Made by a program: the position numbers and the translations under genes
The notes under the pieces: model-generated
Told to the model about the DNA's origin: nothing
Databases searched by the model: none
Seen by the model: the letters and a program-made list of their open reading frames with translations, nothing else
Shown here: positions 17,713 through 44,570 of the stretch, one piece after another
Numbering within the stretch: the stretch's first letter is position 1
Layout: each line of letters begins with the position of its first letter
Source of the DNA: Bilabrum cf. latius
Lineage: Eukaryota
Assembly (NCBI GenBank): GCA_965178125.1
Contig: OZ237748.1
Location: 868,001 to 932,000 of the forward strand
DNA: 64,000 bases
Direction of reading: 5' to 3'

Positions 17713-20700
17713 TCACCACAGCGCACCCCCCTCATCGTCCGAGGAGTCACCATCCCCCCCACCCCCACCACCATCCTGCAGCACCACCTCCTCCTCCATC
17801 CCCTCCATCGCCGCATCCTTCAGCGCCTGCTCCTCCCTTAGCCGCCTCCTCGTCTCCTCCTCCTTCTCCTTGTCCCTGCCAGCGGCACCCATGGACCGCC
17901 TGGCTGCCGCCGCCTCCTCGTCCACGTTCACCTTGCGCACACCAGTCAGTGAGCCGCTGCCCCCACTCGTCACACCACTACCACCACCACCGGACCCGCT
18001 TTGGCCACCCTCCGCACGGAGCCTTTCCCTCCTCTCTTTCGCGGTCTCGATCTTGATGGCCCCTCCCCCGGCACCACCGCCCCCGTACCCCCATCCGGAG
18101 CCCCACCCAGCCCCCGCGCCCGTCCCCCCCGCCCCGTCCCCACTGCTGGGCCAGTCCCCGAAGAGGTTCAGATCGGGTCTGAGGGGATCGTCAGGCGGCT
18201 GCTGCAGCATGGCCCTCTGCTTTTCGGAGAAACCGCGCTCGGGCCAGTCGAGGAGAGTGATGGTCACCTCATCCCCGCCCTCGAGATTGACCACCTGGCC
18301 AGAGTAGTCCACGGCAGGCCACAGGCTAGGTCCCAATGCAGCGGAAGGATCTGCCGTGTCTGTGCCTGTCTTCCACAGGGAGTCCGGGTCGTAAGGGTCC
18401 GGTGGCGATTTCGATTCCGAGTTGCTGCCGGGCGGTGGGTCGGTGCCGCCTGCACCACCAGGCGATGCACCCTGCTGCTGTTTCGTATCCTGTTCCGGTT
18501 TGGCTGGAAGCGGGGGCACCTCGTCCACGCCCGCGCCCAGCCCCAGCCCCAGTGTCCCGTGCCCTGGATGCCCCGGCCCCACGTCCACCCCCGAGAATGT
18601 CTTGAGCTCGCAATCGCCCTGCACGCCCAGAGTCGCCTTGGCGTTGTAAGCCGAATCAACCGAGTAGGCGAGTCGGCGCCAATCCACCCCGGCAGCCGCT
18701 GCGATCCTGCGACCGAGGGCCTCCCACCCGTCGCCTTTGACCACCCTTACCTCCCTGCGTGGCCAAAGGTGTCCCCTGCTCCGATCCCACCATCGCACCC
18801 GCACGATCGCCTGCCCGTCTTCCGCCAGTCCTGCGGAACCGGCCGGCGCCGCGCGTGTCCGCAGCGTCGCCTCGGGGTGCTCCCCCGTGGCCAGGATCGC
18901 ACTCGTCACATCCTCCTCACTCGTCACACCGTCCTCCGGCGGCCTAACCTCGAAGGAAAGCAAGGCCCCCGGGTACAGCGAGGCAGACCCCACCGCTGTG
19001 CTCACAGTCGCCCCGGCCGATTCAACGACCGCCCCCGGCTGCGTGCTGAACTTCCTGCCCCGGACCCATGCGCCCGCCGCCCAATCGCCCGGAGTGACTT
19101 CTTCAAGAAGATCGCCCACCGCGGGATCTGCCTGGGCCTCGAGCAGCTGCGCCGCAATGGGATGCATCTCGCCCCCGCGCTCGGCCGAAGCGTCGACGGC
19201 CGCCTGCGCCGCGTCTCTGGTTGCAATCAGGTGCCTGTGTTCCCTGGCACCGAGTTCCGCAAGGCGCCGCGCAACCACGGCCGCCACCGCTCGCAGTGGA
19301 ACTTCCGGCAGCAGCGGAAGGTCGGCTATCTTCATCCTCTCGATTGGCAGGTCCGTCAGGAGCGGGTGGTTCGGCTCGGGTGCCACAAAGGGGGCCGCAG
19401 GGGAGGGGCTGCCCTTGGTCTTGATCTCAGCTGTGTTCCCGGGTTGTCCATTTTCTGTGGTCTCACCTGCATTGTCCTTAGCCTCAGCTTTGCTCTTGAT
19501 CTTGTTCTCTTCCTCGCCCCAGAATACCTCTTTAAGCCGGGTCGTGTCACCCTCCTCTGGCAGGATTTGCGGCCGGCCGAGTGGACCCCACGGGGACGCA
19601 CTCGTCACATCTTTGCCCGACTGGTCACCGCCGGAGGACGCACCGGCAGCGGAAGTGGGATCTCCACTCGTCACACCACCACTCGTCACACCCGCAGCCT
19701 TGTTCCTCGCCGCCTCCGTCTCTCTCTCCTGCACCGCCATGGCAGCCCTGGCTTCCACCCTCTCCTCCTCCGTGGGGGCAGGAGGGACCCACCCTGTGAC
19801 GAGTGGACTCGGAGTCGGAACCGGTCCACCTGGGCTCGCGCCCTCGCTCTCAGCACCGGTTGCAGCAAGGGACTGCATCTCCTTCCCCTTCCCGTCCCAG
19901 TCCCCGCACGCAGTGTCAAACCAGCGCCAACCTACAGCCCACGGCGCCCGCAGCACCTGCACGGCGCAGATCTGCTCACCAGCCCGAATGTCCCTGCCGT
20001 CCCGGAGAGCCATCTTGTCCTCCCTATAGATGTGCGTGTCCAGCAGGAGGGTGGGCCGCCCACTCGTCACACCCCCGGACAGCATGGCCCGCGAGGTGTT
20101 GCCCTTGTGAGCCTGGAAATGACCCGGAGTCAGGCCTGCCGCTTTGGCCAGGGCCGCCTTCAGCTCCACCACCGGTCTCCGCACGTCGAACAGGATCACG
20201 CCTTCCCGGCGCCGCAGCGGCACTTGCTTCTCCTTCTCACTGCCGGCCTCTTTCACGTCTGCGCCCGCGCCTGCCCCAGAGCTGGCACCCGGGCTGGCTG
20301 ACCCAACCGCGGGCGAAGGCGAAGATGACGACGACGATGATGATGCCGGTGCTTCCACGGTCTTCCCGCCTTTGACCACGTCTTGTTCCCCAAGATCGCC
20401 GGTTGCAACCGCGCCCTCGTACTCCCAGGGCAGAGCCGCGGAGAACACCCGCTGCTCGATGCATCGCACTGCGGCGCTGTCCACACTCGTCACAGGGACC
20501 ATGGACCCCAGCTCCGCGCTGCTGTAGGGGCAATAGTCCTTGTCTCCAAATGCGGCTCCCCTCGCCGAACCTTCCTCCTGCTGCATTACGTCACCAAAGG
20601 GTTCGTCGGGGGCGTCGGGATCTGCCGCAGCGGCGGCGGCTGCTGATGACCTGGGATCGGATGACCCGGAGTCGGAAGTCCCGCTGCCGATCGCGGCGTC

Positions 20701-23700
20701 GACGGCAGAAGCAGCCGCCGCCGCCCCGCCATCCCCACTCGTCACACCGCTCGGGTCCTCGCCCGCCCCGTCGCCTTCCTCGTCGTCCATCGCCCCCGAC
20801 CAGGGCTTCATTCCCGCGGCAGTGTCCCCGGCGGCAGCCGCCACCCTGGGACCCTCCTCGTCCTCACTCGTCACACCATCGGGGAGCAGCTCCCCCAGCA
20901 CCTCGCCCCCCTCCCCGATCCCCATGCCGCCCAGCGCCCACGCGGTGCGTCGGACGGCCCACTCGTCACACCCGTCTCCGCCCTGACCCGCACTCGTCAC
21001 ACGGTACCTGCAGAAATCCCCCTTCTTCCGCGAGGTACCGCGGAGCCGCCACGCGCTCAGCTGCCGGCTATTTCCGGTATAGCTCAGGGCATCCTTGCTC
21101 TGGCAGCTCCAGCGGAACATGCGGAGCCTGGAATGCGCGGCGCCGGAAAGCCGGGGCGCGATCCTCGGATGTTCCGCAATGCGGCGCCGCAGCTCCTCCA
21201 GCGTCGCGCCGGGGGGGACCCTGACGATGGCGGGGTCCAGGGTGAGTGGGGGGACGAACCTTCCGAGCGAAGGTTCGCTGGCTTCCTGCCTGCTGCTAGA
21301 GTCGTCACCCGAAGCACCGCCCAGATCGCCGTCGCCATCTCCGTCACGAGCACCGGCAGCGGCACCGGCACCGGCACCGGCAGCGGCTTTGCCGTCGCCG
21401 GGCACAAACACGCGAACTTTCACGGAAATGTCCCCGTCGTCCCAGCGCACCCACGGGTGCATCGCACTGTCGCGCACCTCAAGGCATAGATAGCTGTGCC
21501 TCGATATCTTGGTGGACTGGATCCGTTTCAGCTCCGGGTCGTCTGGAACAAGCTCCACGGCCTCCTCGATCCCGTCCCCGTTTTGGTGTGACGAGTGCGG
21601 ATCGGCCGAAGAGGAGGAGGAGGAGGAGGAGAGATCAAGGGCCCTGGCCTTCGCCAGCAAGGGCACGAACTCGGAGCCGGAATCTCCCCACTCCTGCCCC
21701 ACAGGGGGGCCCATCGCACCCGTCCCCCCTCGCCACATCCGCAGCCTGATGCAGCTCAACGGATACATTTTCCGGCCCGCGGGCCCGATCCACGACTCCC
21801 GGCGGGGGTCTTCCCCGAAGGAGACCTGCCTGGCCATGCCCTCCGGTGGGGGCGCCAGAGCAGGGTGTGACGAGTGTGGGGCGGCAGCGGAATCATCGCC
21901 CTCTCCATCACCACTTTGACCACCCTCATGGTCAGAAGGTGTCCAAAGGCCGTGGGCCTCTGCCGCCCTCCGTTTGAACTCGAGCACAGTCTCGTTCCTC
22001 GAGATCGTCAGCTCGAACGTCTGGTGGGACTCTTTCAGCCGATCCACCAAGTCGGGCCCGGCCTCGGTGTGATGAGCGGACTCGGAATCGGAACCGAGGG
22101 TGCCGGCGCATGGGCGCGCCGCCCGCGGCAGCTTGGTTGACACTGGCCTGAGCCCAGCCACCTCATCGTTCGCCAGCTGACCCAGGATCGGGTCATCCAG
22201 CTCGTTCCACCGGTGGACCACATTGACCTGGATCTTGGCGGCTTCTTCGAGCCGTGCCTGTTCCGCGGCTTGTTCCGCGGCTTTGGCCGCCTCGGCCTCC
22301 CTGGTGACCCATGGGGGCACGTCCCCCTTGTTCCCCTCGGGGAGGGGTGCCCCCACCCTGACGTACGTCTGAGTCAGCGTTGAGGGGTCCGGGTCATCAT
22401 CCTTGGTGGTGGCCACTGTATCCCTGCCACCGTCACCATCCTCACCATCGTCAGCACCGTCACCAGCATCAACGGCTCCTACAGTGGATGCCTCGTCCCC
22501 TTTCCTCGGTCTGGCCGCGTCCTCTTCAGCTGCCAGCACGCCCAGCGGATCGATCCCGAGTGCAGCCGCCTGCTCAATCGTCACACCGTACGACTCAGTC
22601 ATGAAGCTCCATTCCTGCACCTACATGTCGCGTGGGTAGCCGCTCGCTCCTGCCAGGTCGTCAGCGAGCCCCTGCAGCCCAACCCTCTGGCTCTCGGTCA
22701 GGATCCCAGCGGCGGGTCTAGATACATCTTCCGGTCTGGATGGCTCTTCCGGTCTGGATGACTCGTCCTCCTCCTCATTATCCCTCTCCTTTTCCTGCTC
22801 CTATTCCCCCTCCTTGTAGTCGTCACACGAATACGCACCCGGGTCCCTCTGGATGCATCGCACTGCGGTTTCCCCCACGGTGTTACCCCTGGGACCCACC
22901 TCCACCTGCTGCCAGGAGGGGCCCGGTGAACCTGGTGTGACGAGTGATGACGAGGGCACGGCTCCGGTCCCTTCGCCTGCACCTGCAGACACTGCACCCT
23001 CTCCCCCATCGCACTCGTCACACGGGGGTGGGACACATTCCGCGCGGCGGTACACCACAAAGTAGGCGGTCCCGCTGCCGAACGCGCCGCCCTTGCTGCC
23101 TCCCAGGTTTGACCACCTGCCGCCCCAGCAACGCACCACCTCCACGTCGGTCGCACTCGTCACACTGGAATCGTTGAACTCGTGCCACCGGCCCGTGGAG
23201 ACGTCCTTGACGTACGAGTAGTAGTGGCCGGAGCCGGTCCCGCCTGCGTGTACGAGAACCGCGTACAGCTCGTACAGCGACTCGGAGCCGAAATCACCGT
23301 CGTGGCCGTTGCCGTTGCCTCCGGCTCCTTCCCCTTGGTCGTCGTCGGTCCCGCCACTTCCGGCTCCGGGTCCAGTGTCGGCCATCCTCTCGAGCTTGCT
23401 GATCTGCAGCGCGGGGTTGAGGTCGGGGTTTGGCTCTTCTCCTTCTCCTTCTCCTTTGCCCTTGTCGCCTTCATCGCCACCACCGCCCGAGAACCCCGAG
23501 GCCGCCGCGGCCGCCGGGCCCGCGGAAACCGCACTCGTCACACCTGACTCCTTCCTCCTCCGGTCCTCCTCCTATTTTTGCTCCTCCTTCTCTGTTATCT
23601 TCCTCTGCCTGTGCATCGCAACAAGCTCCCTGGGATCCGCGTCCGGCTGGTACTCGAGGGGCAGTTCCCTCCAAGCATCGAACAGATCGGCGCCCTCTGG

Positions 23701-23749
23701 CACTGGTGCATCGGGTGACGGCATCACTGCCTGACCAGGGGCATCGGGA

Positions 23750-23791
<42 letters not shown>

Positions 23792-26232
23792 GATGACGAG
23801 GGTTCACCACCTTGGCCACCACTCCCACTTTGCCCATCCCCACCCTCACCCCCACCTTCCTTCTCCTTCTCCTTCTCCTTCTCCTTCAGCTCCTTGATTG
23901 CTTGTTCCCTGGCCTGCGCCAGGCACCTCTTCGCCGCGATCCTCTCCCCCCCTTCCCCAGACCTGACCCACATCCAAAAGGGAAACCTAAGCTCGTCCAG
24001 CACCTTCTTGGACTGGAACGTGACCAAGTCCAGAGTGAACCTGTGGAGATGGAAGGCCAAGTGAGGCGAGGCAGACACCAGCAGCTCCCCCTTCACGCTC
24101 CGGGTCCGCTCCCCGCACTCGTCACATGTCACGGCGTTCCCACCCTCCATCACGGTGGCGCTTTGGGCCTTGGCCAGCGCCTTGACAAGCGTCGTGGGTC
24201 CGCTGCCCTCCTCCCCCCCCATGGGCCTGACCTCCACCCCCATGTCCGTGTGGCCCTGCACGCGCCTGCGCACCTCCCCGCACTAAGTGCACGCTACATA
24301 ATCCGACATGCGGCTCTCGAAGGCGGAGGAGAAGGGCTTCCGGCCCAGCTCCTGGGGGGGCGGCGCCAGGGTAGATTTCCATTCCGAGTCCTCGGCCTGC
24401 TCCGCAGCGCGCTGTTTGGCCATCGCTTCCTGCTGCTCTCGGTGAGCCTTGGCATCTTCATCTTCATTTTCATCGCCATCTTCATCATTCTTCCCCTCCT
24501 CTTCCTCCTCCTTGTCTCGGCCGCTGCCTTCCCCATGGTCTGTGGCTTTCTCGGGGTGAGCTGCGTCCTCGGCACTCGTCACACCCTCACTCATCACACC
24601 ACCAGCCCCCTCCGTCCCCCCCATGAGGTGGTCAAAGGCGCCCTCCTGCCCCACCCTCTCGTCAAAATTCCGGTCCATCGCGTCCAGAAGAACGTGAAAG
24701 AGCTCCTGCGCGTCTGACTGCTGAAAAACCTGCCCGTCAGTCCAATGGAACGAGTCTGTCAGCGCGCGAGTGGACGCCGCGGGGGGAGAGGCGAACAGCC
24801 CGCCGCTGTAAGTAGGCGAAGATGAAGAAGAGGAATGGGACTGCTCCTGGCCCTGCCCAAAGGCCTCCTTGAGCCCCCAGGGGTCGTTGGGGTCAGCCTC
24901 ATTGGGCCCCTGGGGGTCCGTGGGGTCACCGCCACCTGCCCCCGACAGTGCGGGGTCTTGCTCGGGTGCAGCGGACTGCGGCACATCCCCTGATTTTGAC
25001 TCCGAGTCGGTACCCTTTGCGTCAGCGTTCGGATCAGCACCATGTGCGGTCTTTCCAGCTTTCGAATTGTCTTCATCTCCCTCCTCGCCCTTCTTTTGCT
25101 TCTCTCCGTCTTGATGCTTCCCTCCATCCTCATCAGCCCCTCCATTCTTCTCCTCTTCCTCCTGGTCCTTGTCCTTGGCCTTGTCCTCGGCCTGGTTGTC
25201 CGCACGACGTGCAGCCCACGCGGCGGCATCTCGCCCCGCCACTGCCTCCACGCCCGCCCTGCCCTGGTCCTGGCCCTCCTGCAGCCTCGCGAACAGCCGC
25301 TGGCACTGCAGTAGAATGCACTCGGCCTGGTCACCGTCCACCTCCTCGCAATACCGGAACCACTCCAGCACCCTCCGGCGGAAATCCGGAGTCATAAAGA
25401 GCATCTGCAGCAGCGAGTTCAGGTAGCACGTCGCCCCCTGGTTCCCCAGTCCGCTAAAGGGGGACAGCGGAACCAGCGCGGCGCCGGGGCCGCTGCTTGG
25501 GAGGTTGCAACCGGCGCGCCGCCCGTGCCACTGCGCCTTCATCCCAAGGTCACTACCAGCACCAGCACCAGCACCAGCGCCGCCGCTTTCTTCATCTTCA
25601 TCTTCATCGGGCTGCGTGACCTTCACCCCAGGCACGCCCCCGAAGCTGAAACCGGAACCAGGGCTCGCCCACGGGTCCGAATCCGCCCCATCGGGCTGCG
25701 GTGCCGTCTGACCCCATGCATCCAAGGGGGCCGGGGCCGGGGCAGGGGCAGAGGCAGGGGCCGCACCATCGTGCGATGCACCCGTCCCGGACCCCGAGGC
25801 ACCCTCCCCCCCACCACTCCCGCTCCCGCCTTCACTCGTCACACCGCTGCCGCCCCCCTCCCCGGACTCTGTGGGTGCCCTCTCCACGGCAGGCTGCCCC
25901 CCGAATACGAAACCGCCCGAGCCGCCGTCACTCGTCACACCGGCGTCCCCTCCCGCCAGCATGTCGCCCCAAGCCTGCCCCACCAGCCCCCCCTCCTGCA
26001 CCCCGGGCGTGTCACTCGTCACACCCGATCCATCCCTGGCCATGTCGGGCAGCCCCTCGGTCCCGTAAGCGCCCTCGGCCGCCCTGGCCCTGGCCTGCGC
26101 ATCGTCCTCTTCGGCTTGCAATCGCATGGCGAGCGCTAAGCTGGCGTCCTCGTCCGATTCCGAGTTGGCTCCTCCGCCGTTGCCTCCGCCGCTGCTGCCG
26201 GTTGACTAGTCGCCGCCTGCCGTGCCGCTCAT
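17713..26232 (-). CDS. Ubiquitin-specific protease (peptidase C19, USP40/USP47-like), ~2,839 aa, apparently intronless
   Basis: Cys box GLGNQGATCYLNSLLQMLFMTPDFRR, QQSDAQELF, Zn finger CT*C...CDEC, His box YAVLVHAGGTGSGHYYSYVKD...WHEFNDSSV, and a UIM-like DASLALAMRLQAEE. One frame runs from ATG 26232 to TGA 17713 with 5 in-frame TAGs (26206, 24283, 23572, 22801, 22621). Confidence 0.9.
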
Positions 26233-26992
26233 CGCACAAGCAGCTTTTGGTTGTTTAATGCTAGGTGCTGCGCGAAGCAACGTGAAACGTGAAACGAATG
26301 AGGACGGTGTTAGATATGTACGGCTACTACACAATCCAATTCATTCCCAGAGGTGGATGATTCTGGGCGAAAAGCTCCGGCAAGTCTTGCCTGTGCCGAG
26401 GACACCACCCAAACTTGCCTACAACAGCCCACACCTCGCACATAGATAGAACATGATATTCAAACCACAATGAATGAGCGCTGGTTCGAATAATGACAGT
26501 TTTATCTGCTCAACGAGTTGTGTTCTCAGCGAATCAGGAAGCCCGTGCTGTACCTAGCCATGTGTCCAAACAAAACCATTCATTCATGATCGTCTAACAC
26601 CAAAAGGATCTCACTAGTACTTGTATCGATACAGATAGCAAACCAAAGCTATTTGCCGCGGGTAAATGCTTCAAGAAGCCTAACTATTGCATTGCAATCC
26701 GAACACACCTTGAGGCATTTTCGGTGTTTCCGATCGGATCATGCCGTGTGCATGCACAGCATGTTGCCGAGAGAGACCCCAGGGGGGAATCGCGCCTGCC
26801 TGTGTAAGTAAATAGCGTTACTCGGGCCAATTTCGTCTTTGAATGCCTCATTCAAGACAACAAGCCGCCAATCAAGATCCGATCGGAGTACTGGAACCAT
26901 CCCATCCCACATGTGCACACCACAAATCAAGGCCCCGAAGAATCCACAACCCGAGGAGAGCAAAAAGTCTTCCTAGCCCCCTTTAGCCCACA

Positions 26993-29375
26993 TCACAGCT
27001 CCTCGCCCATGAAATCCTCGTCCTCCTCACCGTCTTCCCCACCGAAGCCGCCCGCGCCGCCCGCACCTCCTGCAGCCGCGTACACCTTCTGGATGATGGG
27101 GTTGGCCACGCCCTCGAGCTCCTTCCTCTGCTCGTCCAGGTCGTCCTTGCTCGCCTCCTCGTTCTCGTCCAGCCAGTCCAGCACCTCCTGCACCTTGGAC
27201 TCGAGCTCCTCCTTCTCCTCGTCCTCGATCTTGCCGGCGAGGCCCTTCTCCTCGTCCTCCAGCTGGTTCTTGAGGTTGTACGCGTACGACTCCAGGCCAT
27301 TCCGGGCATCGATCCGGTCCTTCACCTCGGCGTCCGCGTCGGCGTTCGCCTCCGCATCGGCAACCATCTGCTCGATCTCCTCCTGGGAGAGGCGTCCTTT
27401 CTCGCTGGTGATGGTGATCTGCTCGCTCTTGCCTGTGCCCTTGTCCTCGGCGGACACCTGGAGGATTCCGTTCGCGTCGATCTCGAAGGTCACCTCGATC
27501 TGGGGGGTGCCGCGGGGGGCCGGGGGGATGTCCTTGAGCTCGAACTTGCCCAGCTAGTGGTTGTCCTTGGTCATGGCGCGCTCTCCCTCGAACACCTGGA
27601 TGAGGACGGCGGGCTGGTTGTCCTGGTACGTGGAGAAGGTCTGGGACTTCTTGGTGGGGATCACGGAGTTCCGGTTGATGAGCTTGGTCATCACTCCGCC
27701 CACGGTCTCGATGCCCATGGACAGGGGGGTCACGTCCAGCAGCAAGATGTCCTTGGTGTCATCGCCGCCTTCGCCCGAGAGGATGCCTCCCTGCACGGCA
27801 GCGCCGTAGGCCACGGCCTCGTCGGGGTTAATGCCCCTGTTGGGCTCCTTGCCGTTGAAGTAGTCCTTGATCAGCTGCTGGATCTTGGGGATGCGGGTGG
27901 ATCCTCCCACTAGCACCACCTCGTCCACCTCCTTCTTGGCCAAGCCGGCGTCGGATAGCACGCGGGTCACGGGGCCGAGCGTCTTCTTGAACAGGTCCAT
28001 GTTGATCTCCTCGAAGCGGGCCCTGGAGAGCTTGTCCACGAGGTCCTCGCCATCAAAGAGCGCCTCGATCTCCAGGCGGGCCTCGTGCTGGGAAGAAAGC
28101 ACCCGCTTGACGCGCTCCACCTCCCGGCGGAGCTTCTGCTTGGCGCGGTTGTCCTTGCTCATGTCGGCGCCCGTCTTGCGCTTGAACTTCTTGATGAAGT
28201 ACTGCATGACCCGCTGGTCGAAATCTTCTCCGCCGAGGTGGGTGTCTCCGTTGGTGGCAAGCACCTCGAACACTCCGTTGTCGATGGTCAGCGCCGTCAC
28301 ATCGAAGGTGCCCCCGCCGAGGTCGAACACCAGGATGTTCTTCTCTCCCCCCTTCTTGTCCAGGCCGTACGCGATGGCGGCGGCCGTGGGCTCGTTGATG
28401 ATGCGCCTGACGTTGAGCCCGGAGATGGTCCCGGCGTCCTTGGTGGCCTGGCGCTGGGCATCGTTGAAGTACGCGGGCACGGTCACCACGGCGTCGTTGA
28501 TCTCCTTGTCCAGGAAGCCCTCCGCGATGGTCTTCATCTTCCCGAGGACCATGGCGCTCACCTCCTCGGGAGCGAACTGCTTGTTCTCCCCCGCGAGGTC
28601 GACCTCCACGTAGGGCCTGCCGCTCTTGGAGACTACCTTGTAGGGCCAGAGCTTCATGTCCGCCTGCACGGTCTTGTCCGTGAACTTGCGGCCGATCATG
28701 CGCTTCACGTCAAAGACCGTGTTGGAGGGGTTGATGGTGGCCTGGTTCTTGGCCGCGTCTCCGATGAGCCTCTCACCAGTGGCGGGGTCCCAGGCGACGT
28801 ACGAGGGGGTGATGCGGTTTCCCTGGTCGTTGGGGATGATCTCCACGCGTCCGTTCTTGAAGACGCCCACGCAGCTGTAGGTGGTGCCCAGGTCGATCCC
28901 GATGGTCGTCCCGACTGCGGTGATGGAGCGAGTGGAGGGTTGCGAGAAGGACAATCGTTGCGATGCACACAGGGAGGGAGGGGATGCCGGCTGGCTGGCT
29001 GGCTGGCCTGAATGAAACTTCAAAACGATCACGTTCAAGCAACATGTTCCATCAAAAATACAAAGTCAAGATTAATCTGGGCTGCATGCGTGGCGTAGCA
29101 CACTAAATGCCAAGTAAATGGGCAAGGAGGCTGGTAGTGCAGCGATCCACAGAGTTTGTCTGGCCCACTACGCAAATACTCAGTCCTAGACCCCTAAGAA
29201 CCGATCAATTCAAATACGTACATATGAATCACTTAGATACTTGTCAGTTTGCGCACAAGCTGCGTGACAACAGCAGCGCCACCGACATGTTGCACTACAC
29301 GTGGAAGCCGATGCAGCAGCTCAGTTGGTCCAACTCACTTGCGTCTTCCTCATCCGCAAATGCGGGCAGTGACAA
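26993..29375 (-). CDS. BiP: ER-luminal HSP70 (BiP/GRP78)
   Basis: [22 protein letters not shown] and [12 protein letters not shown] signatures. One in-frame TAG at 27554 lies in MTKDNH*LGKFEL, and the protein ends MGEEL-TGA. The main exon starts after CACCGCAG (~28916); the upstream signal-peptide exon(s) are approximate. Confidence 0.95.
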
Positions 29376-30244
29376 ACCTGTGGAAACAGTATGGTTAGAC
29401 ATATATGACGGAGGGCTTATGGATGTTTGAGCGAATTGCACGAGCAAACACGTTGCTCGTTGATGCACGTGGAGGCCTTCCCGATCAAGGTTCTGAAACT
29501 GTACCAAAGTTGCGCAAATTTGCACTCACATGCCACTGCACCAATAAGCATCAATGCTCGGTTCAACATTGCTCCAGGTACGGCTTTGTGTGACACTAAG
29601 AACCGTATGAAGTGGCGCGGTGGGTGTTCTGCTGGATGGCAAGCACGCAATCTGGTTTGTTCGTTTGTGCAGTGTTGTTTCAATACGCATGTGCAACTCG
29701 GCGCATAGCTCAGCGTTTTGTACCGTAATCTGGTAGTATACGACAAAGACCAACGTACATTTGTAGTGTTGACTCAGTTCGGCTGATAAATTGTGTCTCC
29801 TGAAAAGCACATTGCGAATCATAAGCGCGAATAGACTTGTTTCCATTGTGTTAATCAGTTCCAAGCGTTCTAATTGTGGATTGTTGTCCATAATCGCATT
29901 TTCCATAATCACATAACACTATTCAAATTGTTCAAATGCATAGTTGATCGTGCGTACGGCACGTACCTTTTTCCGTGAAAAGCTGGCCTGTATCGGAGCA
30001 ATGTGGTCACATCTGCGTGCCACAGTGGCACGTTGGGGTACGCCGGAAGACAACCTCAACGAGATTCCCGTCCGAATAACCACCCAGCAGCCGCATAAAT
30101 CCACCAGTGCAGGCATGCCACCCTTAATCATGTCCGATAGGATATATGCCCCCCTTCCCTCCCCCTCGTCTGGGGGGGATAGCCAGCCACACCGTAGAAA
30201 ATATCAATTCTGAATAAAGTCCCGCAACTACCGCATGTCCACAA

Positions 30245-32512
30245 TCACTGGCCCACCCGGATTGCTTCCTCTAACAACTTCACGCAGTCGTCATGCCCCC
30301 CCAATCGAGCCGCCTCCAGCGGTCCCACCACCCTGCTCCCGCGCGCCCCGTCCTCCACCTCTCCAGTGATATGCAGCCCGCCCGCAAGCTTGCCCAGCCT
30401 CAGCCGTCTCTCTAGCTCCATGGGCCTACCATGGCTTGCCGCTTGGAAGACCATTCCAGCGTCCCTCTTGGCCTCTACTGCCCTCCTCCAGCACAGGGCC
30501 CTCCGAATTGGAGATGCAACGAATGATCGAATGACGGCTGCGGTCTCGGGTCTCACGAGAGTGTCTGCTAGCTCGGCAGGAGTCAAGCCATCCTGGTAAT
30601 TTCAGGGAAGGAGTGGCGGCATGATAGGGCGTGGGCGATGCAAATGGGTTGGTGGCGTCTCCGAAACTAGGTGCATGAGTGCAGATCGTGCAAGATAAGA
30701 AGACTCATGTGTGGGTGCTCACGCTATCCTTGACGTCCCTGCGGGCCCCTGCCTCCATGAGGATGGTGGCACTCGCGTTGCGGGTATAGTAAGCTGTGTA
30801 GTGGAGGGGTGTCGTGCCTCCTCGCTGCGGGCACAACGACATGGCAATACGAAACAAAGCATACGGTTGCATTTACATGTAGCCAGTTCCCTTTGTGTTT
30901 CTCCCAGTAGTGAGCCACCTTTGAAGAAGACTACAAATTCGATACGATTGCTATAGCACCTGTTGTATGTCTCACCGTAGTTGCGTGCACGTCCCCCCCA
31001 TTATCCAGTAAGATCTGCAGGCACTGAGGAGAACCCACCTGGGCTGTGAAATGCATCGGGGTATTCCATGCCTGGGAGGGAATCAGAACGGGATGTACGG
31101 TGCAGCAGCGTGCGGATCATGGCAATGTTGACGTCAAACGACACACACTACTAGTGCGAGGGGCCATATATGTGTGCCATGTCAACACCGTGTCAACAAC
31201 AACCCACAAGCATTCCGTCGGACTAATGTCGTGCTCAAGCCTTCATTGCAAAGAAATAAACTGCAAAAAATGTACAAGCTTGTCTAAATCTCGAGGTGGA
31301 GTCTAGTCTGTCGACTAATTGGACCGTCAAGCCACTTCCCCCCTTATAGTTGGGGGATCCGACCATACTCCTGCACAATCGCCCAATACGATACTCTGTG
31401 GTTTCTGTCTTACACTATCCACGGCATGTACATCCCCACCGTTGTCCAGAATTACCTAAAGGCAATCGGGTTGGCTTTCTTGTCCGGCTATGTGTGTAAG
31501 TGTGAGGCCAACCTGCATCAGGGATGGACGAAGGGGCGGCAGGTGGTGCATTAGCCAGGTACAAGTGAATTGCGCTATCACGCGTACAAGGAGCGCAGAG
31601 GAGTAATGCTACTCATGTGGCCAACGCAGTCCCCGGTTGCAACCAACCGACCAGAAAGTCCTAGTACTTTTAGGTACACAGTAGCCATTGGTTACATACA
31701 CCCTCTAGCCAGACAGTCGACTACGCCTGGTACACAGGCACCTCCGTCAATTTCCCAGACGAACGCGCAATTCCTCACGTTCTCAGCAGCTTCCACGTCG
31801 GCGCCCCTCTCGATGAGTAGCTTCAGGCAGTCGAGGTGGCCTTTACAAGCAGCCAACCATGCCGCCGTTTCACCCAGCTGCGGTGTATCAAACGGTAACG
31901 TGCAGAAAGAAGGATACACCAAAGTCGGCCTTTCAGACCGGGGAGGCTATGTGTATTTACAACGGCTAGCAAAAGCGATATATCCGGATCTGTATTGTCG
32001 ATCTCGATTGATACCAGGTTTTACAATCATTGATAGGCCTACTAGGGTCTTGGCAGTCCGTTTGCTGGAGCAGATGACTATGAGCACGAAGCGACATGGC
32101 GCTTGAATCATTGATATGTTGAGTTTACCTGCCAATAATGCCCCCGCCCCCACCGATGCCGCAAGAAGATGCAGCTGCATGGTCTCGCCGCGCTCCCTAA
32201 CTACCACGAGTTTATTCTAGTGCGTCAACTGTTCTAGATACCCAGCCAGAATGTCCGGCAGCCGGGCAATTAGTAGCTTTGCTAAGGCCATCCACGGGTG
32301 GTCGGCTATCTATCTATGAGTTCTTCGGTGATAGCTCACCCACGAAACCATGGAAAAAATGAGATGATGCACTCGAATGCTTGATTTCAATTTCATACGG
32401 TAATTGCCAATCTCACCGCATCTTTGGATTCAATGTAGGTCCCCGCATCTAGGCACAACCTTAGGTCGTCAATCTTGCCATTATCAGCAGCCTCAAGCAG
32501 TGCGTCTCCCCT
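30245..32512 (-). CDS. Ankyrin-repeat protein (~6 exons) with the shared C-terminal domain
   Basis: Exons GDALLEAADNGKIDDLRLCLDAG, LGETAAWLAACKGHLDCLKLLIERGAD, VGLTLTHIAGQESQPDCL*VILDNGGD, AWNTPMHFTAQVGSPQCLQILLDNGGD and GTTPLHYTAYY. The final exon ends at TGA 30245. Confidence 0.85.
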
Positions 32513-33115
32513 GTAACACTCAAAAAGTATATAATTGAGATGTTCAGTCCGAATGAATTGCGATATGAAGGCTTCTGTAGTGTCGCAATCTACGAATAGT
32601 CTATTGGGCAGCATAAAATGCTTCAATGAGTAGCGGAATCCGCGCAGGCATCAATTGACACGTGACGAAAACGAAGAACATTACTTAAACCTAACATTTA
32701 GAACAATCGTTCGAGCCTGTGCTTTCAAGGACGATGTAAAGATCGGTCTGAGAACGGCAGAGCTGATAACTACACGTTTCAATAAACGCTGCAGCAGAGC
32801 GATTTTGCCACCGTGCTACCCGAGGGACAAGAGGGGGAGGGGGGGTTCCCCCGGCAGCAAGCACTGGCGCCCAAGGGGGAGGCCGCCCAACCTTATCCAA
32901 GACCCGGCCGCGCCTACTTCTCCTAGAAAGACACGGCCCCGGACGCACTCGATCAAACTGGAGCCCCCAGCTCCAGCAAGATGCGGCGATGTCGCCGCCG
33001 AGGTGGGGCGTGCGTGTGCGCCGCGGACAGATGGACCTCCAACGAAGCCACTGGGCTAGGGCGGGCTGTGCCCCTGGGAGCGACCGTGCGCGCTGCAGGC
33101 GGATCATCAGCGAAG

Positions 33116-33153
33116 CGGCTAGGCTAGGCTAGGCTAGGCTAGGCTAGGCTAGG
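33116..33153. repeat. (GGCTA)n microsatellite
   Basis: About 7 perfect copies. Confidence 0.9.
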
Positions 33154-33210
33154 CAAGGGTGCGGTGGAATGCTAGAGATTCCCTCGTGGATCAGGAGCCG
33201 CAGAGCACCT

Positions 33211-33527
33211 GCTCGCCACCATCGCAACTCCTCACGCCGCTCTACGGGCAGGAAACCGAAGAAGGCCTTCCCTCGCCACCATCGCAACTCCCCACGCCGC
33301 TCTACGGGCAGGAAACCGAAGAAGGCCTTCCCTCGCCACCATCGCAACTCCTCACGCCGCTCTACAGGCAGGAAACCGAAGAAGGCCTTCCCTCGCCACC
33401 ATCGCAACTCCCCACGCCGCTCTACGGGCAGGAAACCGAAGAGGGCCTTCCCTCGCCACCATCGCAACTCCTCACGCCGCTCTACAGGCAGGAAACCGAA
33501 GAAGGCCTTCCCTCGCCACCATCGCAA
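33211..33527. repeat. 60-bp minisatellite, ~5.3 copies
   Basis: Unit CTCGCCACCATCGCAACTCCTCACGCCGCTCTACGGGCAGGAAACCGAAGAAGGCCTTCC, with no unique spacers. Confidence 0.95.
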
Positions 33528-33646
33528 CGCCCCGGGGGGAAGGTCTAGAGACAGAACCTTGTCAACACACATCCTACTATGTGCCCCAAACGTATGAATC
33601 TAGCGCAATCGTGTTCCCTCTCTACAAGTGCCTGCGCTATCATGCT

Positions 33647-35653
33647 TTACTTATCTGTGGCATCCAACAGCAGCTCCACGCACTCGTCATGTCCCCCCAA
33701 TCGAGCCGCCTCCAGCGGACCCACCACCCTGGTCCCGCCCGCCCCGTCCTCCACCTCTCCAGTGATAGCCAGCCCGCCCGCCAGCTTGCCCAGCCTCAGC
33801 CGTCTCTCTAGCTCCATAGGCCTGCCCTCTTCAGCTGCTTGAAACACTATCTCCGCGTCCTTCTTGGCCTCCACTGCCCTCCTGTAGTAGACGAGCCTTC
33901 TGATGCGCTTAACTCTCTTCGACACGAACGACCTAATAGCGGCAGCGGTTTCGGTCTATCCTTTTGCGTCTGCATTCTCGGCCGGAGTACGGTTACTCTG
34001 CTCTCGTGAAGGTTCAGGGCGAGGCATGGGAGGGCGCTTATAGGATGTGTGGGGAATGAATAATCGGATCTGGGAGTCACGAGGACAAGTACCGCGGGCT
34101 GCAGCAATCCGACTCGGGGGAATGTGCCACGGCAGCCCACTTTGTTCTTGATGTCCCTGCGGGCCCCTGCCTACATGAGGATGATCGCATTCTCGGTTTG
34201 ACCATCGGACGCTGCCAAGTGAAGAGGAGTTTCTCCGAACTGTGCGCGAGTCCATGGCGGGTAAAATGATATAAGTTTATTGCAAGAGTAAGATCACGCC
34301 TAAATGCAATCGATGGATATTTTGTACAGCTGTCTGATGCTACCAAATGTAGCTCCCAAGAAGGGCAATACAAGGACGCAATACCAGCCAATAGTCCCAA
34401 GATAGTTATAGTGGGAACCTATGGATGATAGTCAACACCGATGAGGCCCATCAAAGGGGCTGCCAACGGCTTCATCTTCTTTAGACATCTGGTCTGCGTA
34501 GCGTTGACCCTCCCTACTAGTAGTACAGCACATCCGGATCACATGCACGCGCATCCATACTGCCTCTCACATAATTCTGCGCATTTCCGTCTCCATTGTA
34601 TTCCATGGCTACCAGCAGAGTCTATCTAGAACAACGCGACGCCTGATGCACAGATGTTAGCCCATACTGTGATGGAACGAGGGTATGGCTGTGTGGGTGC
34701 GAATGTTACCATAGGCGCGTGTACGGCTCTGATCAATTCTACATCAACTCAATAAAAACGCAACAGATCTACATGTAAGGTGGAAATATGCGCTGAATGA
34801 TTCAAAACAAGACAACAAGCGACAGTATTTCAAGATTCGGATCCATCAACCCACTCCGTACCGCGAAACCATCCGGATTCGTATCGCTCTATTTACCCTT
34901 GAGGCGATGAATTCGGTGCCGAATAATGTTGTGATCATGCATGCACATTAATCATCCCATAAGAATGCAGCCAGTATGCGCATGACGACATTCGCAACCA
35001 ACTAGTCGCTCTCACATCATCTCCGGCATTCATATCGCAGCCATGAGCAGCAAGCACTTGCAGACATCCCGTGTGGTCACCTATTGCTGCATGATGTGCT
35101 GGCGCCCACCCATACTGCTATGAAAGGGAGGTAAAGTGAGCTTTAAATGCATGGTTTGGCCCCCGATTCCGTCCAAGGGGCCGCCACTGATAGCTAGATC
35201 TACTGTGTCCAGGATGTAAGCATGATGAACACAACATCAATCAAGCGTGTTTAACATACAAAAGTAGCAATCACATGCTGCGTCACCGTGTCCATGCGCC
35301 TAAAAGCTGCCTAAACACGCACACAATCAGAAGATTAGCCCACGGGTGCGGTTGAAGGAACAAATCTAATATGTAGTCTAGGCTCAATGGATGCTATGGG
35401 GGCGGGCCAGCAAACTATGTACGAGCTAGATAGGTGCTACAGAATACCCTGATCCATTGCACCAGACCATGAGAAACATATTGGCATATCTATCAGGATG
35501 ACATACATGATGGTGAGCGAGGGTCCAGTCAGGATTTGATGCTAATCAACTCACGTTGCCGGATACGCCCACGTCGGCGCCCCTCTCTAAGAGCAGCTAC
35601 AGGCACGCCGTCTACCCGTTCTTTGCAGCGATATATGCGGCCGTCTGGCCATA
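33647..35653 (-). CDS. Ankyrin-repeat protein, tandem paralog of 30245..32512
   Basis: Exons YGQTAAYIAAKNG*TACL*LLLERGAD, YGWAPAHHAAIGDHTGCLQVLAAHGCD, FGETPLHLAASDGQTENAIILM*AGARRD and SNRTPAENADAKG*TETAAAIRSF plus the shared domain. It ends at TAA 33647, and the 5' end was not found. Confidence 0.8.
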
Positions 35654-36869
35654 CTGCATATGAGATGCATGCATGCGAAAACTGACAGAGGTGCTTAAAT
35701 GGGTGCTGGACCTTCAAATTGGTTACCTGCTGGCGCTGTAGGCAACATGTGATCTACATCGCGAGTGGGAGGACCCGGGCACGTATAGTACTACCTCCAG
35801 CCGTCGGAATTACGTGATCATTACAATAATGGACGCTTCAATTTGGTTAGTTGATAACGATCAGCGTAGTCCAAGTCACGACGCAGACTGGTTGCAAGCC
35901 GTTGTCCAGTCGCATGTATAAAGCTGGCTCCGGTAGACCCTGTCAGTGAAATAGCCAATAAATTGAAAAAGATCGCAGGTTGCTGACCCGTTCCAATAAT
36001 TCTCTCACGACATCCTTGGATTCGACGTCCGTTCCCGAATCCAACCAGGAACGAAGTTCGTCCGCCTCGCCATTCTTGGCTGCTTCTAGCATAGCATCCC
36101 CCCTTCAAACAAATTTGATATAAAATACTTAATACAAATAAAATGTTGCTACGTAACTGCATTTAAGCTCATGCGCCTTGTAAAGGCAGTCGGATAAAGG
36201 GCAACTATGAGCAGCGCCCTCCACGCGACACTGAGCATACACTAAAGACCATACAGTCGTGATAAACATTACGCATTCTCACATTTTCTAAAATTTAGAG
36301 TTCGATGGTATCAAAACACTGTGATAAGACGTGCAGTGGCTGCCAGAATTCTGGCAGACGCATCATGATGGATCGTCGTCACTGTGGCACTGCGTGGCAC
36401 CTTCATCACCCTCGGGATATTCTCGCTTAGCTGCACCCATCATGGCACGCACGCAGCATAGCTCATGAGTCAAGACCGCGTTGCATCTGAATATAAGTGC
36501 CAGCATTCGCAATCAGCAGAACCCAGGGCGCAAGGACCTGCGCCACCGCCACATGTGCCGCCGGATGGAAGCACAGTTTCGTAGAAAGGTGCTTGCTTAC
36601 TTGACTGCAGAACCAGCGCCATTAGTATCCACCTGACTCGTGGGACTAATCGCGGACCCTACAATCTGTTCTGTACCGTCCGCACGACCTCTGGAGGTGG
36701 AATCGCATGGGTCCAGCTCGCGCTGTGGACAGGCACCTGCCGCCACCCAACCAACACTAGATGGTGCCAGCTCTGGCAGTGCGGGTGCTACAGGTGAGGC
36801 GGGCGACCATGTTGCCAGCGCTGGCAGTGCGGGTGCTTCAGGACACGGTTCCTAGGCATATTTCGGTCT

Positions 36870-39527
36870 ATGCCTGGCCAACTATTTCCTTGCAGGCCTT
36901 CTCAGGTCCTGACTGGCTCCGCCAGGTGGGTCTCCTGTTCAGGGGCGCGCGTTACTTCCGTCACAGTCCTCGGGTTGTATCTGGTATTGAATTGCAAGCG
37001 AAAAATATACAACATTTTTATTCTCTCTCTCAACATTTTTATTCTCTCTCTCAAATCATGCAATACACACAAGCTGCCGAACGAAATGGTCAGCTTCTTT
37101 GATTTCGACGGTGCATGCATACTCAGCAATTATGCATCTGACTTCGAGTGGTCTTGCTTCAAAGAGAGGGTCAGGGGACTAGAGGGTACTACTAGTAGAG
37201 TGGCCAGGTGCTGGATCAACACCGAAGCATTGGGACCAGACGAAATGAGAGCAATTGCGGAGGTAATACCAAAGATTCCTGCAATTGCCTGTTTTTCAAT
37301 CAGTCAGTGGGCCAAGAAACCGTCGTCGGCTGCTTTGGGGATTTTGGCGGCAGCAGCAGAACACCTCAGAGAGCTGGAGACCATTGACGCCAATGACTTT
37401 AATGTACGAGACTCGAAGTCGGCGGGATATATATCATGTATGCTTCGCAATAATGTGGTGTCGCTTAATCGTGTTTCCCTCCGCATGGGCTTCGAGCAGG
37501 GCGCTGGGATGGATCTCGTGAGGTCCCTGTCTCAGTGCAAGAACCTCTCGACCGTCCGCTTGAGCAGGCAAAGCGGTGGAAACGAGACTGAAGCGAGTTC
37601 GGCTCTAATTGAATGCACTGGTAGGCTGCCTTCGCTTCGCGTGCTGAGCTTCTACGGCGTTTCGTCAACGAGCGTAGTCGCCAGGGCAATCGCAGACTGC
37701 AGGGGCACACTCGTGGAGGTCGAGGGGAAGGAAATGACCAGGTCAAAGAAGGAGGGAAGCGCGTCCTGCTGGCGTGCACTATCGTCGTGCGCGTCACTGC
37801 TGAAGATCACGTGGCCAGCTCCCCTGGCGTCGGACCTGGAGGGGCAGACCGCCTTGGAAGCTTGCCTGAGAGTGCATGAGGGGGTCGAGGAGGTAGTGCT
37901 GGGGAGCTTTGGGAACAACGCAGGTGACAGACGCGAAGTGGTATGCTTTCAATCCGAGGTGAACGGCATTCTATCCAATCCCAGGTGCAAGCTGAAAGGC
38001 CTTACTGTGAGTTGCCGCGTGGGAGAGGGCGACCAGTAGCATCTAGGTCGACTGTTGGCTGCCGGTGTGTCGAGCCTGGTGCGACTTAAGGTAAGGCAGC
38101 TTGGAAGTGCCGGTGTTTTGGCAGTAGGTCGCGGTTTACAATCATGCGGATGCAGGTTGCGCGAGCTGGCGCTCCAGTCCTGTAGCAGTGAGATCAGCGG
38201 GTGGGCGGCGCTGGGGGTTGCACTAAGTGGTCACGAGACGTTGAAGAAGTTGGTGGTCACTGGTAGCAATATGCAAGGGGGGGGCGCGTATCATTCGGAT
38301 GACGTCTTTCAGAGATTGGCGGATAACGTGGTCTTGGAAGAGCTGGACCTGCGGGAGAATTACGAGTTGGGGCGGGAATAGTACGCTGCACTGCATGAGT
38401 CGTTGCTAGGGAATGACACCATCAGGAAGGTGTGGACCAGCGAAAGGGTGGGTGAGGATGCGTAGTCGCTCATTAACTTGCTGCAGGAGAATCATTCAAT
38501 GGAAGTTCTTGGCTTCAACATTCCCTTGGATGGTACCACACCTGCCTCTATGGGGATGGGACGCGCCCTCGAGTCTAACTAGTCCCTTCGTTAGATGGAA
38601 GTCATGGTGGCGGCGCCAAAGGGCCTGGATGCCTTACCTGCAATCCTTGCCTCCCACCCCCACATGGAGAGGCTGAGCATTGTCAAATATGATGCTGTGG
38701 AGGTGCCGCCGGCGGCCATAGCTGCGGTGATCAAGGCGATCGAAGACAGCTGCCCGGGGATGAAACATGTAGATTGGGCGACAGGCGTCCTGGATGCATC
38801 AGATTCTAGCATGGCCAAGGTCCTTGGGACAGACAGGACACACATTGTCAGGCAGTGGATGGGCCAGGAGCCCACCCCGCAGAGGGCTGCAGGTGCCCTC
38901 CGCACGCTGGGTGGCAGGTTCAGAGACAGCCTAGATTCACATGAGGTCTGCAGGTACGCTGCCGGGGCACTCAAAGGGGCATTAGTGGCGAACGATGCGG
39001 GCGGATGCATCATCGTGGCATCTGCGTGCGCGGACGGGGTGCGGGAGAATGACGATGACAAGGACGACGAGAGTCGCGGATTCTTGATCGATGTGTCAGG
39101 ATGGGAGGGGTCGGGTCTGTGGTAGGCTGGGCAAGCCGTGGTAGGCAGGCATTTGGGGTGCGAGAGGGGCGCGGAGGAAGGACAGTGGGTGGGTGCCGTG
39201 AGAAGATGCGAGGAGATGGTGCAGTATGAGGCGATGAGGAGGCAGAGGGCCATGGCCAGGTGGATGCAGGCAGTGACGGCACGTCGGGACGCGGGGTACA
39301 TCTTTAGGTGCGCAAGGGACGGGAGGCCACTGGAGCTGGGGAAGCGGCTGAGGCTGGGGGCTAAGACGGGGGCACTGGCTGTGAAGGGCGAGTTGGAGGT
39401 GCAGGTGGGTGGAATGATGGTGAGGAGGACGGTGACGCCCCTCGGGGCAGCCAAGTTGGGAGGGCATGACGAGTGCGTGAGACTGCTAGAGGATGCAATG
39501 GGGCGGATCAAGCTGCTGTAGGGGTGA
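36870..39527 (+). CDS. RNI-like leucine-rich-repeat protein fused to the shared C-terminal domain
   Basis: LRR-like segments CRLRELALQSC, LADNVVLEELDLREN and ALESN*SLR*MEV. One frame runs through 7 TAGs (38037, 38379, 38463, 38580, 38592, 39123, 39519) to TGA 39525. The true start is uncertain. Confidence 0.8.
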
Positions 39528-40377
39528 CGTGTGACGTGTGACCAGGCAATCCGATGTGGTACCGTGTGGGTGGCTAGGGTTGTTTTACATTGAGCTCACC
39601 GAGGCAGCGTGGGCAAATTTGCATTTAAGCTCGGCAGTAGAACATCCGGATTCATCAGGCTCACAAGTCACGCCCCAGTTGCTATTTGTCGGATCCCGTG
39701 CTGGCAATTCACGCCTTGTGTCGCCACCGTAGTCTTTACCACCACATGCCACCGCCTTCCGTAGCAACTTTTTTGTCTGCTGGCCCAGTAAACCCTTGCT
39801 CAGACCCCTAGGCCCTGCTTTCTCCAGTGATCCTGCACGCCGCCCAGTACCATCACCCCCCCTTCATCCCGTGTAGTCCTAGTTCCATCCTTAGGTAACC
39901 CCGCTAAACAATCTTAATACTGGGTTTATCAAATCCGACTTCCGTATCACATTCATCGCCAGGTATAGCACGACCAGCCCAAAAACCACGCGTTGATCCA
40001 CCCGTGTAGCAAGCCGAACCGATCCAGCAGAGGCACTAGAGCGGGCAATTGCTCGGCGCATCCTGAAGATGGTTCGCTCAGCAGCAACTTCAAGTCAGCC
40101 CTTATCTAGAGGTTATGGGTGAGTTCCAAGACGTAGGCCATGGTCCGCCCATGCCTTCCTCTATCTTGCCCTTCTCCTCTGAAGTTCGACTGGCCCAGTC
40201 ACCGGAGACCCACTCTGCCTGAAGATTAGGTGACTGCAGCGATGACTCTCGACGAGTCATCTCCACAGCCACCTTGTCAGTCAGCTCTGGAGTAGGGGAA
40301 CAGGAACGAGGGTAAATACCCGCACGAACACGAAGGATCAATCGTCCAATAGAGCCAAGTGATAAAATGTGTGGGGG

Positions 40378-41710: not shown

Positions 41711-41937
41711 TATAATTAATGCAGTGTACTTTACCAGTGTACGCCCTCATAGTGCGTAGTTTATGGAATCGTGATGACAGAGCAACGTGTGCGATACTAT
41801 TTTTATTACAAACTGTTTTCACCGTTCCGTCAAGACATAGCTATCTTACGCTTGCAAGACGAACGCATTCGGCAGTTCGTAGTTGCGAACACGGACGTGA
41901 GAAATTGCTCATTGGCTTGACAATCATCCTCGCAGCC

Positions 41938-43945: not shown

Positions 43946-44090
43946 CTTCGTCCGCAAGAGGTCATGGGCTAGCCGTACCAAAAGGATGCTTACGAATGTG
44001 ATGTTGGTATGCTCTAAGTACTAATATGTATGGATTATCCAAGGATCCGGATTGCTGGATAAACCAATCAAGCGAGAAGCTCTGTCCAAG

Positions 44091-44570
44091 TCATGCAACA
44101 ACCACGAACGAGTGCAAGTACGCATTTGCAGTACCATAGTACAGCTCCCAGTCAGCTGGCTCGGCGGCCTTTGTATTCCTCGTGAAGAGGCCAGCCATTA
44201 CTAGCCTGGGGACCACCTTTCCGATGGTGGTCAGGGCAGTAGCAGCATCTGCACACTATACCCGATCGCGATTTTCAAGCATTCGCACAGGATCTACTGG
44301 CGCTGGTATCACTGCTTTGGCCGGATCCCTGCGGAAACCTTTTAGTATGGCCCTCTCAAGTTCTTCCTAGGCGTCAACTTGACGAAGGTCAAGGTAAAAT
44401 CCTGGAAGAGATGCGGTTGCGGGGAGAAATGCTCTACCAAGTTTTGGTATTTAAGGAGACAGAGTCTGATTCGTTGTTGACGTCAAATGAGATGATAAGC
44501 GTCTGTGCGATGAGGATGGCTCTGCGAAGAAGGAGAACGCCGCAACACCTTGTCCGTAGGTGGGGGGGAA
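44091..44570 (-). pseudogene. 3' fragment of a paralog of the element-interrupted gene (48501..59014)
   Basis: IGKVVPRLVMAGLFTRNTKAAEPADWELYYGTAN is near-identical to 48539-48635. It ends at TGA 44091 and its 5' side abuts retroelement copy 2. Confidence 0.6.

Follow-up and report, generated by a model that had tools for sequence, protein, structure and literature searches.

The window examined here is a 64-kb stretch of contig OZ237748.1 (assembly GCA_965178125.1, positions 868,001 to 932,000), and all coordinates below are counted from its first base. It has a G+C content of 57% over its whole length, with GC-rich stretches at 0.64-0.68 between 18 and 26 kb and a third-position G+C of 0.73-0.90 in coding sequence. 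Its largest genes are fragmented under the standard genetic code and become single frames once TAG is taken as a sense codon. We describe the genes in which such in-frame TAG codons occur, chiefly those for BiP (the Hsp70 of the endoplasmic reticulum, ER), a USP-type deubiquitinase and a leucine-rich repeat (LRR) protein, and compare them with contigs of a sister species recovered from metagenomes. The window is very probably nuclear DNA of a GC-rich protist whose nearest named relatives, judged from BiP, are bicosoecid stramenopiles, and in which, as in the sister species, UAG is decoded as glutamine, with UGA and probably UAA serving for termination.

Genes with in-frame TAG codons

The BiP open reading frame (ORF; 26993-29065, minus strand) comprises 690 codons, ends in TGA and holds a single TAG at 27554-27556 (ORF codon 504), within the peptide KDNH*LGKF (27542-27568, minus); here and below, an asterisk or a bracketed dot within a peptide stands for TAG. 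Its translation matches the HSP70 family (PF00012) with an E value of 7.1e-255 over profile positions 2-598 of 599, and its best match of solved structure is human BiP (E 3.7e-274). The alignment with the human protein is ungapped across the TAG, which therefore lies outside any intron. An initial annotation of this DNA had called the gene otherwise intact. The frame is indeed open save for that one TAG, but no ATG stands before the conserved N-terminal start (28916-29065, minus), and the same holds for the sister species (contig L001, 1-777). The start codon and the signal-peptide exon would thus sit elsewhere, separated by an intron, in a genome with at least some introns. At its other end, the window's BiP finishes in GEEL (26993-27010, minus); among the C-termini listed, Cafeteria-type proteins have HEEL, another related group has SEEL and several other hits have xDEL, which suggests that the ER-retrieval signal may have shifted in the BiP of the window's clade.

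BiP is followed on the minus strand by the gene for the USP-type deubiquitinase (17713-26232, minus), which runs for 2,839 codons from its ATG, within an ORF of 2,875 codons (17713-26340), and ends in TGA. It carries five in-frame TAGs, all on the minus strand, at 26206-26208, 24283-24285 (in the peptide CT*C, 24280-24291), 23572-23574, 22801-22803 and 22621-22623. Residues 297-1066 match the UCH family (PF00443, E 1.3e-35) on profile positions 2-241 of 254; this match spans two TAGs, and the catalytic Cys-box and His-box flank them in one frame. For the sister species' ortholog, the nearest relatives of solved structure are USP47 and USP7.

The LRR gene, of the RNI-like type, occupies 37086-39527 (plus) within an ORF of 909 codons (36798-39527) whose end codons are TAG GGG TGA. 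It contains ribonuclease-inhibitor-type repeats (E 1.7e-10) and seven TAGs, with first bases at 38037, 38379, 38463, 38580, 38592, 39123 and 39519. The first of these falls within the aligned repeats, and the fourth and fifth belong to the peptide N*SLR*M (38577-38597, plus). Where the initial annotation counted over 40 in-frame TAGs in the region it covered, 13 are found in verified genes within those coordinates (one in BiP, five in USP and seven in the LRR ORF); a total above 40 requires long ORFs without a recognised family.

TAG codons also occur in shorter coding segments that have partners elsewhere in the window. Two ankyrin-repeat exons lie at 30982-31467 (minus), with an Ank match of 20.7 bits, just below the cut-off of 21.1; the upstream exon contains DCL*VILDNGGDVHA (31423-31467, minus) and the downstream one QCLQILLDNGGDVHA (30982-31026, minus). 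A further ankyrin repeat, translated as AIILM*AGARRD, has its TAG at 34171-34173 (minus). The C-terminal part of another paralog family member is found at 43556-43945 (plus), beginning MLT*CRGNEQ (43556-43585, plus; TAG at 43565-43567) and ending in TGA at 43943. A second paralog at 47529-47963 (plus) includes VHKQARGNPQ (47580-47609, plus), has a TAG at 47529 and an in-frame TAA at 47676-47678, and ends in TAG TAA at 47958-47963. Finally, an open-ended ORF with repeated FxPxI units and no family (61925-64000, plus) has the fourth highest coding score (193); it contains one TAG (63023-63025) after its first ATG and three more upstream of that ATG, where coding status is unsure, and the peptide GQ*QS lies at 62063-62077 (plus). 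Every peptide quoted in the initial annotation was found in the sequence at its reported place, including RLSVAA*H (45010-45033, minus).

Reading of TAG in the window and in a sister species

The in-frame interruptions of these genes are of one kind only. Across 6,893 codons in seven coding sequences, five from the window and two from the sister contig L001, there are 20 TAG, no TAA and no TGA, whereas 55 TAG, 30 TAA and 312 TGA are counted off frame, in the two remaining frames of this DNA. By our arithmetic, the probability that 20 of 20 interruptions are TAG under these off-frame frequencies is about 7e-18, which places the pattern beyond chance. ORF length was not a discriminating control: 14 ORFs of at least 500 codons arise when TGA is read as sense and 16 when TAG is. 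In DNA this rich in G+C, TGA outnumbers the other stop triplets, which brings the two figures so close.

The same pattern was found in a second species. Metagenome contigs were scanned with P0004, the closest BiP match (94% identical), which gave 49 loci. Two of these contigs, L001 (5,386 nt) and L032 (2,567 nt), come from two different metagenomes, carry a BiP gene 85% identical in DNA to that of the window and keep the window's synteny of BiP and USP. The synonymous divergence (dS) of BiP between window and sister is 0.77; the two would represent separate species that differ at the majority of synonymous sites. A search of the protein library with the window's BiP fragment returned no identical protein, the best match being the sister's at 95%. 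The USP gene of L001, followed for 590 codons to the contig end, contains six in-frame stops, all of them TAG. Three stand opposite CAG in the window, in the conserved blocks LLQC[.]RLF, G[.]VF and VF[.]QSDAQEL; one (CT[.]C) is common to both species; and two, in poorly conserved stretches, stand opposite GAG and GGG. The TAG at LLQC[.]RLF is also present in L032 and has therefore been assembled twice independently. Conversely, the codon that matches the window's BiP TAG is CAG in both L001 and L032. In the protein library, the sister's USP was already present as fragments, one of 224 residues whose last residue directly precedes the first TAG and one of 101 residues lying between two TAG sites, which is the expected output of a gene caller using the standard code.

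Sequence beyond the TAGs evolves as coding sequence. Between window and sister, the ratio of nonsynonymous to synonymous change (omega) stands at 0.047 for BiP as a whole and at 0.022 for the 179 codons that follow its TAG, and in USP a pN of 0.27 against a pS of 0.69 was obtained from the 344 codons aligned beyond the first TAG of the sister; the downstream sequence is therefore under selection at the protein level. The stretch 19600-29500 is present in nine sequencing runs from four studies, eight of which contain at least half of the sampled words, so the sequence is not peculiar to one assembly; no RNA run is among the nine, and this result speaks to the DNA. The conserved genes under selection are thus broken by TAG and by no other stop. 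Translation must run on past this codon, and its partners in orthologs and paralogs are glutamine codons.

Given that TAG is sense, glutamine is in our judgement its highly probable meaning. At the unshared TAG sites in conserved context, namely that of BiP and the sister's LLQC[.]RLF, G[.]VF and VF[.]QSDAQEL, the codon in the other species is CAG in four of four cases. Alignment columns were taken from the 150 USP homologs that ranked best among 1.84 billion representatives. Of the 128 homologs aligned at LLQC[.]RLF, 123 have Gln, as do USP47 and USP7; at VF[.]QSDAQEL, Gln is found in 58 of 111. At the BiP site, Gln occurs in 10 of 120 homologs, and the closest match (94% identity) is one of them. 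Within the window, the upstream ankyrin exon has TAG (DCL*VIL) where the downstream exon has Gln (QCLQIL), and the TAG in MLT*CRG at 43.6 kb stands opposite Gln in VHKQARG at 47.6 kb, so that both paralog pairs cited in the initial annotation as pointing to glutamine agree. The proposal made there of a nuclear code with UAG as glutamine is accordingly borne out by the BiP alignment, by selection after TAG, by the sister orthologs and by the paralog pairs. The assignment appears well supported, though on few sites.

Several observations weigh against it. In BiP, the column is Leu in 82, Ile in 17, Gln in 10, Val in six, Ala in three and Met in two of the 120 homologs, and human BiP itself has Leu. 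At the shared CT[.]C site, 58 of 132 homologs have Glu (Thr 12, Ser 10, Val 10, Lys 9, Asp 9, Gly 6, Gln 6, others 12), and the G[.]VF column is Glu in 57, Asp in 39, Gln in 13 and His in two of 111. The TAG at 47529 stands opposite Lys in the other paralog copy, several TAGs lie within Glu/Lys-rich runs, and the TAG at 34171 (minus) occupies the position that is usually Glu in the ankyrin-repeat consensus, in keeping with the alignment to Glu reported for this one codon in the initial annotation. The amino acid is thus read from few sites: four TAG/CAG pairs at unshared positions, and a single column of strong conservation. A sense codon for some other residue, such as Glu or Leu, would draw on these Leu- and Glu-dominated columns (Glu or Asp in 96 of 111 at G[.]VF) and on the Glu-rich runs, but we consider it very improbable. 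The columns concerned are variable and appear to accept Gln, whereas the near-invariant column and the closest orthologs, at all four unshared sites and at the BiP site of the 94% identical homolog, all have it. Scarcely credible is the further reading that TAG is an ordinary stop and that these genes are pseudogenes, assembly errors or the sources of transcripts repaired by editing or splicing. It would have to account for TAG as the sole interruption, for omega values of 0.02-0.17 downstream of TAGs, for the ungapped BiP alignment for a pattern that recurs in two species and in two independent metagenome assemblies, and for the presence of the window's stretch in nine sequencing runs from four studies; moreover, if U-to-C editing were at work, TAA and TGA should be rescued too.

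The remaining alternatives concern termination. TGA terminates: it closes USP, the 43.9 kb paralog and the BiP gene of both species, in the latter directly after the C-terminal xEEL motif, and is the commonest terminator seen. TAA probably terminates as well. The clearest instance of TAA closing an ORF is a repeat-rich ORF of 800 codons without TAG (754-3156, minus), which has the third highest coding score (392), and TAA also closes the 47.9 kb paralog, there as TAG TAA. That UAA and UAG might both be glutamine, as in the code of ciliate, Hexamita and ulvophyte type (NCBI table 6), with TAA merely rare in GC-rich genes, is a reading that we regard as quite unlikely, although two points weigh in its favour and against a change confined to UAG. 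CAA makes up 12.7% of CAR codons in the checked genes, and if TAA were used like CAA, finding none beside 20 in-frame TAGs would have a probability of 0.067, which is not significant. In addition, the in-frame TAA at 47676-47678 (plus) stands in a paralog where the 43.6 kb copy has Ala; that copy may be decayed, or it may hint at a readable TAA. Against this alternative stand the lack of any TAA in the 6,893 codons, the two ORFs that finish at TAA, and the observation that reading TAA as sense lengthens almost no ORF, with eight ORFs of at least 500 codons either way. A second difficulty for UAG as plain glutamine is that two of the seven ORF ends examined have a TAG one or two codons ahead of the final stop, the LRR ORF with TAG GGG TGA and the 47.9 kb paralog with TAG TAA. 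These could be relics of former TAG terminators that are now read through, or TAG could still terminate near 3' ends. The latter would make TAG ambiguous in the manner of context-dependent codes, with the meaning of glutamine inside genes and of a stop close to the mRNA's 3' end. We think this unlikely: simple read-through of former TAG terminators predicts the same pattern, and four other window ORFs and the BiP gene of L001 end in TGA or TAA with no TAG near.

With UAG as glutamine and UGA and UAA as stops, the change would be explained by the following steps, which we infer from other reassigned codes. UAG would be decoded by a tRNA-Gln with anticodon CUA, one base change away from the CUG isoacceptor, and eRF1 would have lost or weakened its recognition of UAG and kept that of UAA and UGA, as in other UAG-only codes. 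Former TAG terminators would be read through to the next TGA or TAA. In the checked genes, TAG would account for about 6% of glutamine codons (20 TAG beside 262 CAG and 38 CAA). It counts against this scheme that tRNA scans of the window, L001, L032 and L002, a Cafeteria-like contig discussed below, found no tRNA gene; no eRF1 gene lies within the window.

Repeats and other features of the window

Of 20 ORF translations from the window that were scanned, 17 have no accepted Pfam family, the exceptions being HSP70, UCH and the sub-threshold Ank match. A Drf_FH1 match of 20.4 bits, against a cut-off of 40, was set aside as low-complexity noise, and an Rfam scan was empty.

An exact 11-base word, TGTGACGAGTG, occurs in 36 copies in the window (at 2462-26023 and 62734-63932), compared with three copies having one mismatch; by chance, about 1.3 copies would be expected at up to one mismatch. 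Four ORFs carry 31 copies on their sense strand; of the rest, four are antisense and one is outside the gene models. The word is read as Val-Thr-Ser in 27 cases, mostly after Gly, and as Cys-Asp-Glu in four, in the form CDE(C/W), including the CDEC of the USP zinc finger. BiP, the LRR gene and the sister's two contigs, L001 and L032, lack it. Where USP aligns with L001 there are four Val-Thr-Ser sites, of which three fall in alignment gaps and one stands opposite non-matching residues. That exact copies outnumber degenerate ones, and that one strand is favoured, speaks against old insertions that have simply decayed.

When two nearby copies of TGTGACGAGTG were used as a search pattern, in a scan targeted at this word only, 77 stretches of prokaryote genomes and eight viral contigs were returned (L050-L134). 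Each of the 16 such loci inspected consists of short tandem repeats with GTGACGA-like units, and most spacings in the complete list are of 12-28 nt; these loci are probably unrelated to the organism of the window. Full-text literature searched for a 9-mer, its reverse complement and 'GVTS' returned primers and MUC1 papers only. A description of the 'GVTS' motif as encoding the palindrome TGACGTCA proved wrong.

Longer repeats are present as well. Two tandem arrays, at 50253-54112 (self-matches at offsets of about 128 nt, 78-87% identity) and at 54911-56877 (offsets of about 325-330 nt, 96-98% identity), lie in a region of strong positive AT skew (0.25-0.35). Coding tandem repeats with offsets of 72 nt are found at 1093-2361 and 5051-5707; the repeat unit AVPGGAVQDEE(Q/M) occurs in ORF 754-3156, and PPAGGAMGGARV is repeated at the end of ORF 5042-7621. 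A duplicate of 1.37 kb (40369-41734 and 44560-45929) is 96% identical between its copies, which contain long minus-strand ORFs with TAGs at the same positions. The label of retroelement given earlier to this region found no backing: no Pfam family was detected at E of 0.01 or below in the minus-strand ORFs 40466-41746 and 44653-45825, nor at E of 0.001 or below in the three plus-strand frames of 39600-49501, the minus frames having been scanned in those two ORFs only.

Phylogenetic placement and comparison with known codes

The named organisms nearest to the window by BiP are Cafeteria roenbergensis (81%), Bicosoecida sp. ms1 (80%), Incisomonas marina (in the 77% cluster of P0081) and Florenciella (77%). 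A BiP phylogeny, which the initial annotation had suggested as a means of placing the organism, was built with FastTree from 62 rows, comprising the window and 61 library matches (those ranked at the top and six further rows), with a fused Brassica entry left out. In this tree the window pairs with L001 (support 100), inside a clade of 26 rows (support 97) to which Cafeteria and Bicosoecida sp. ms1 also belong but Incisomonas and Florenciella do not. The window thus groups with a clade that contains bicosoecids, and we provisionally regard the organism as a bicosoecid-related stramenopile, on the evidence of one gene with few named anchors.

A relative with ordinary use of TAG appears to be at hand in the same clade. 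Contig L002, from the same metagenome as L001, is Cafeteria-like, with a BiP 78% identical to that of the window. At L002 3689-3909, two convergent ORFs come to their first TAG with 215 nt between these codons, in one case just past a GNAT domain. The BiP, PfkB/SIS and EDR2_C ORFs of L002 have no in-frame TAG, and nothing in this contig showed TAG as sense. This gene layout fits a contig that keeps the standard code, in which case the change would have taken place on the branch leading to the window and L001, after the split from L002.

As a type of code, the reassignment of UAG alone to glutamine is already known; what appears to be new here is the lineage. UAG alone is assigned to glutamine in Iotanema spirale (Fornicata) and in the ciliates Protocruzia tuzeti, Hartmannula sinica and Trochilia petrani (PMC11687900). 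The code of the window resembles these codes of the table 15 type in that UAG would be sense and matches glutamine, UGA and apparently UAA are stops, and the meanings of UAG and UAA are decoupled (PMC5304391, PMC11687900). Unlike those hosts, the organism of the window is GC-rich and, by BiP, is placed near bicosoecid stramenopiles, and its commonest terminator is TGA, whereas UAA is described as the primary termination codon of I. spirale (PMC5304391). With the codes in which both UAA and UAG are glutamine (table 6; many ciliates, Hexamita, Streblomastix, ulvophytes and Amoeboaphelidium; PMC11687900), the window shares the amino acid for UAG. It differs from them in having genes without in-frame TAA and two ORFs that end in TAA, a weak test given the P of 0.067. 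UAG alone is also reassigned in the rhizarian exLh and some phyllopharyngean ciliates, as leucine, and in Scotinosphaera, as serine (PMC11687900, PMC5304391). The ortholog partners in our comparison are CAG and the conserved column is Gln, unlike what those codes would lead one to expect, and Leu is the majority residue only in one variable column of BiP.

The full-text literature that we searched contained no mention of a reassigned nuclear UAG in stramenopiles or bicosoecids, although a recent report could have been missed, and the earlier suggestion that this may be an unreported lineage therefore stands. It is an evenly balanced possibility that the window and L001 belong to an undescribed clade of at least two species near the bicosoecids, which would be the first among stramenopiles to have an altered nuclear code. 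Here, in a GC-rich genome, UAG would be glutamine and UGA and UAA stops; the change would postdate the divergence from Cafeteria-like relatives, in which TAG still closes genes, and would have left relics at gene ends as a TAG followed by a stop. The 11-base word would be a feature of the sense strand of coding sequence in the species of the window and not in its sister.

Changes to the nuclear code are rare, and those in which UAG changes and UAA does not are rarer still; for UAG alone becoming glutamine, one survey lists Iotanema, Protocruzia and two groups of phyllopharyngean ciliates (PMC11687900). A practical consequence is that genes would be split at TAG wherever this genome, or metagenome contigs related to it, were annotated under the standard code. 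If our reading is true, the clade would add a further independent origin of this code, in a stramenopile and in a GC-rich genome, with a close relative of standard code on hand for comparison. It would thereby offer a natural experiment on how eRF1 comes to tell UAG and UAA apart, and on the way in which a tRNA-Gln(CUA) becomes established.

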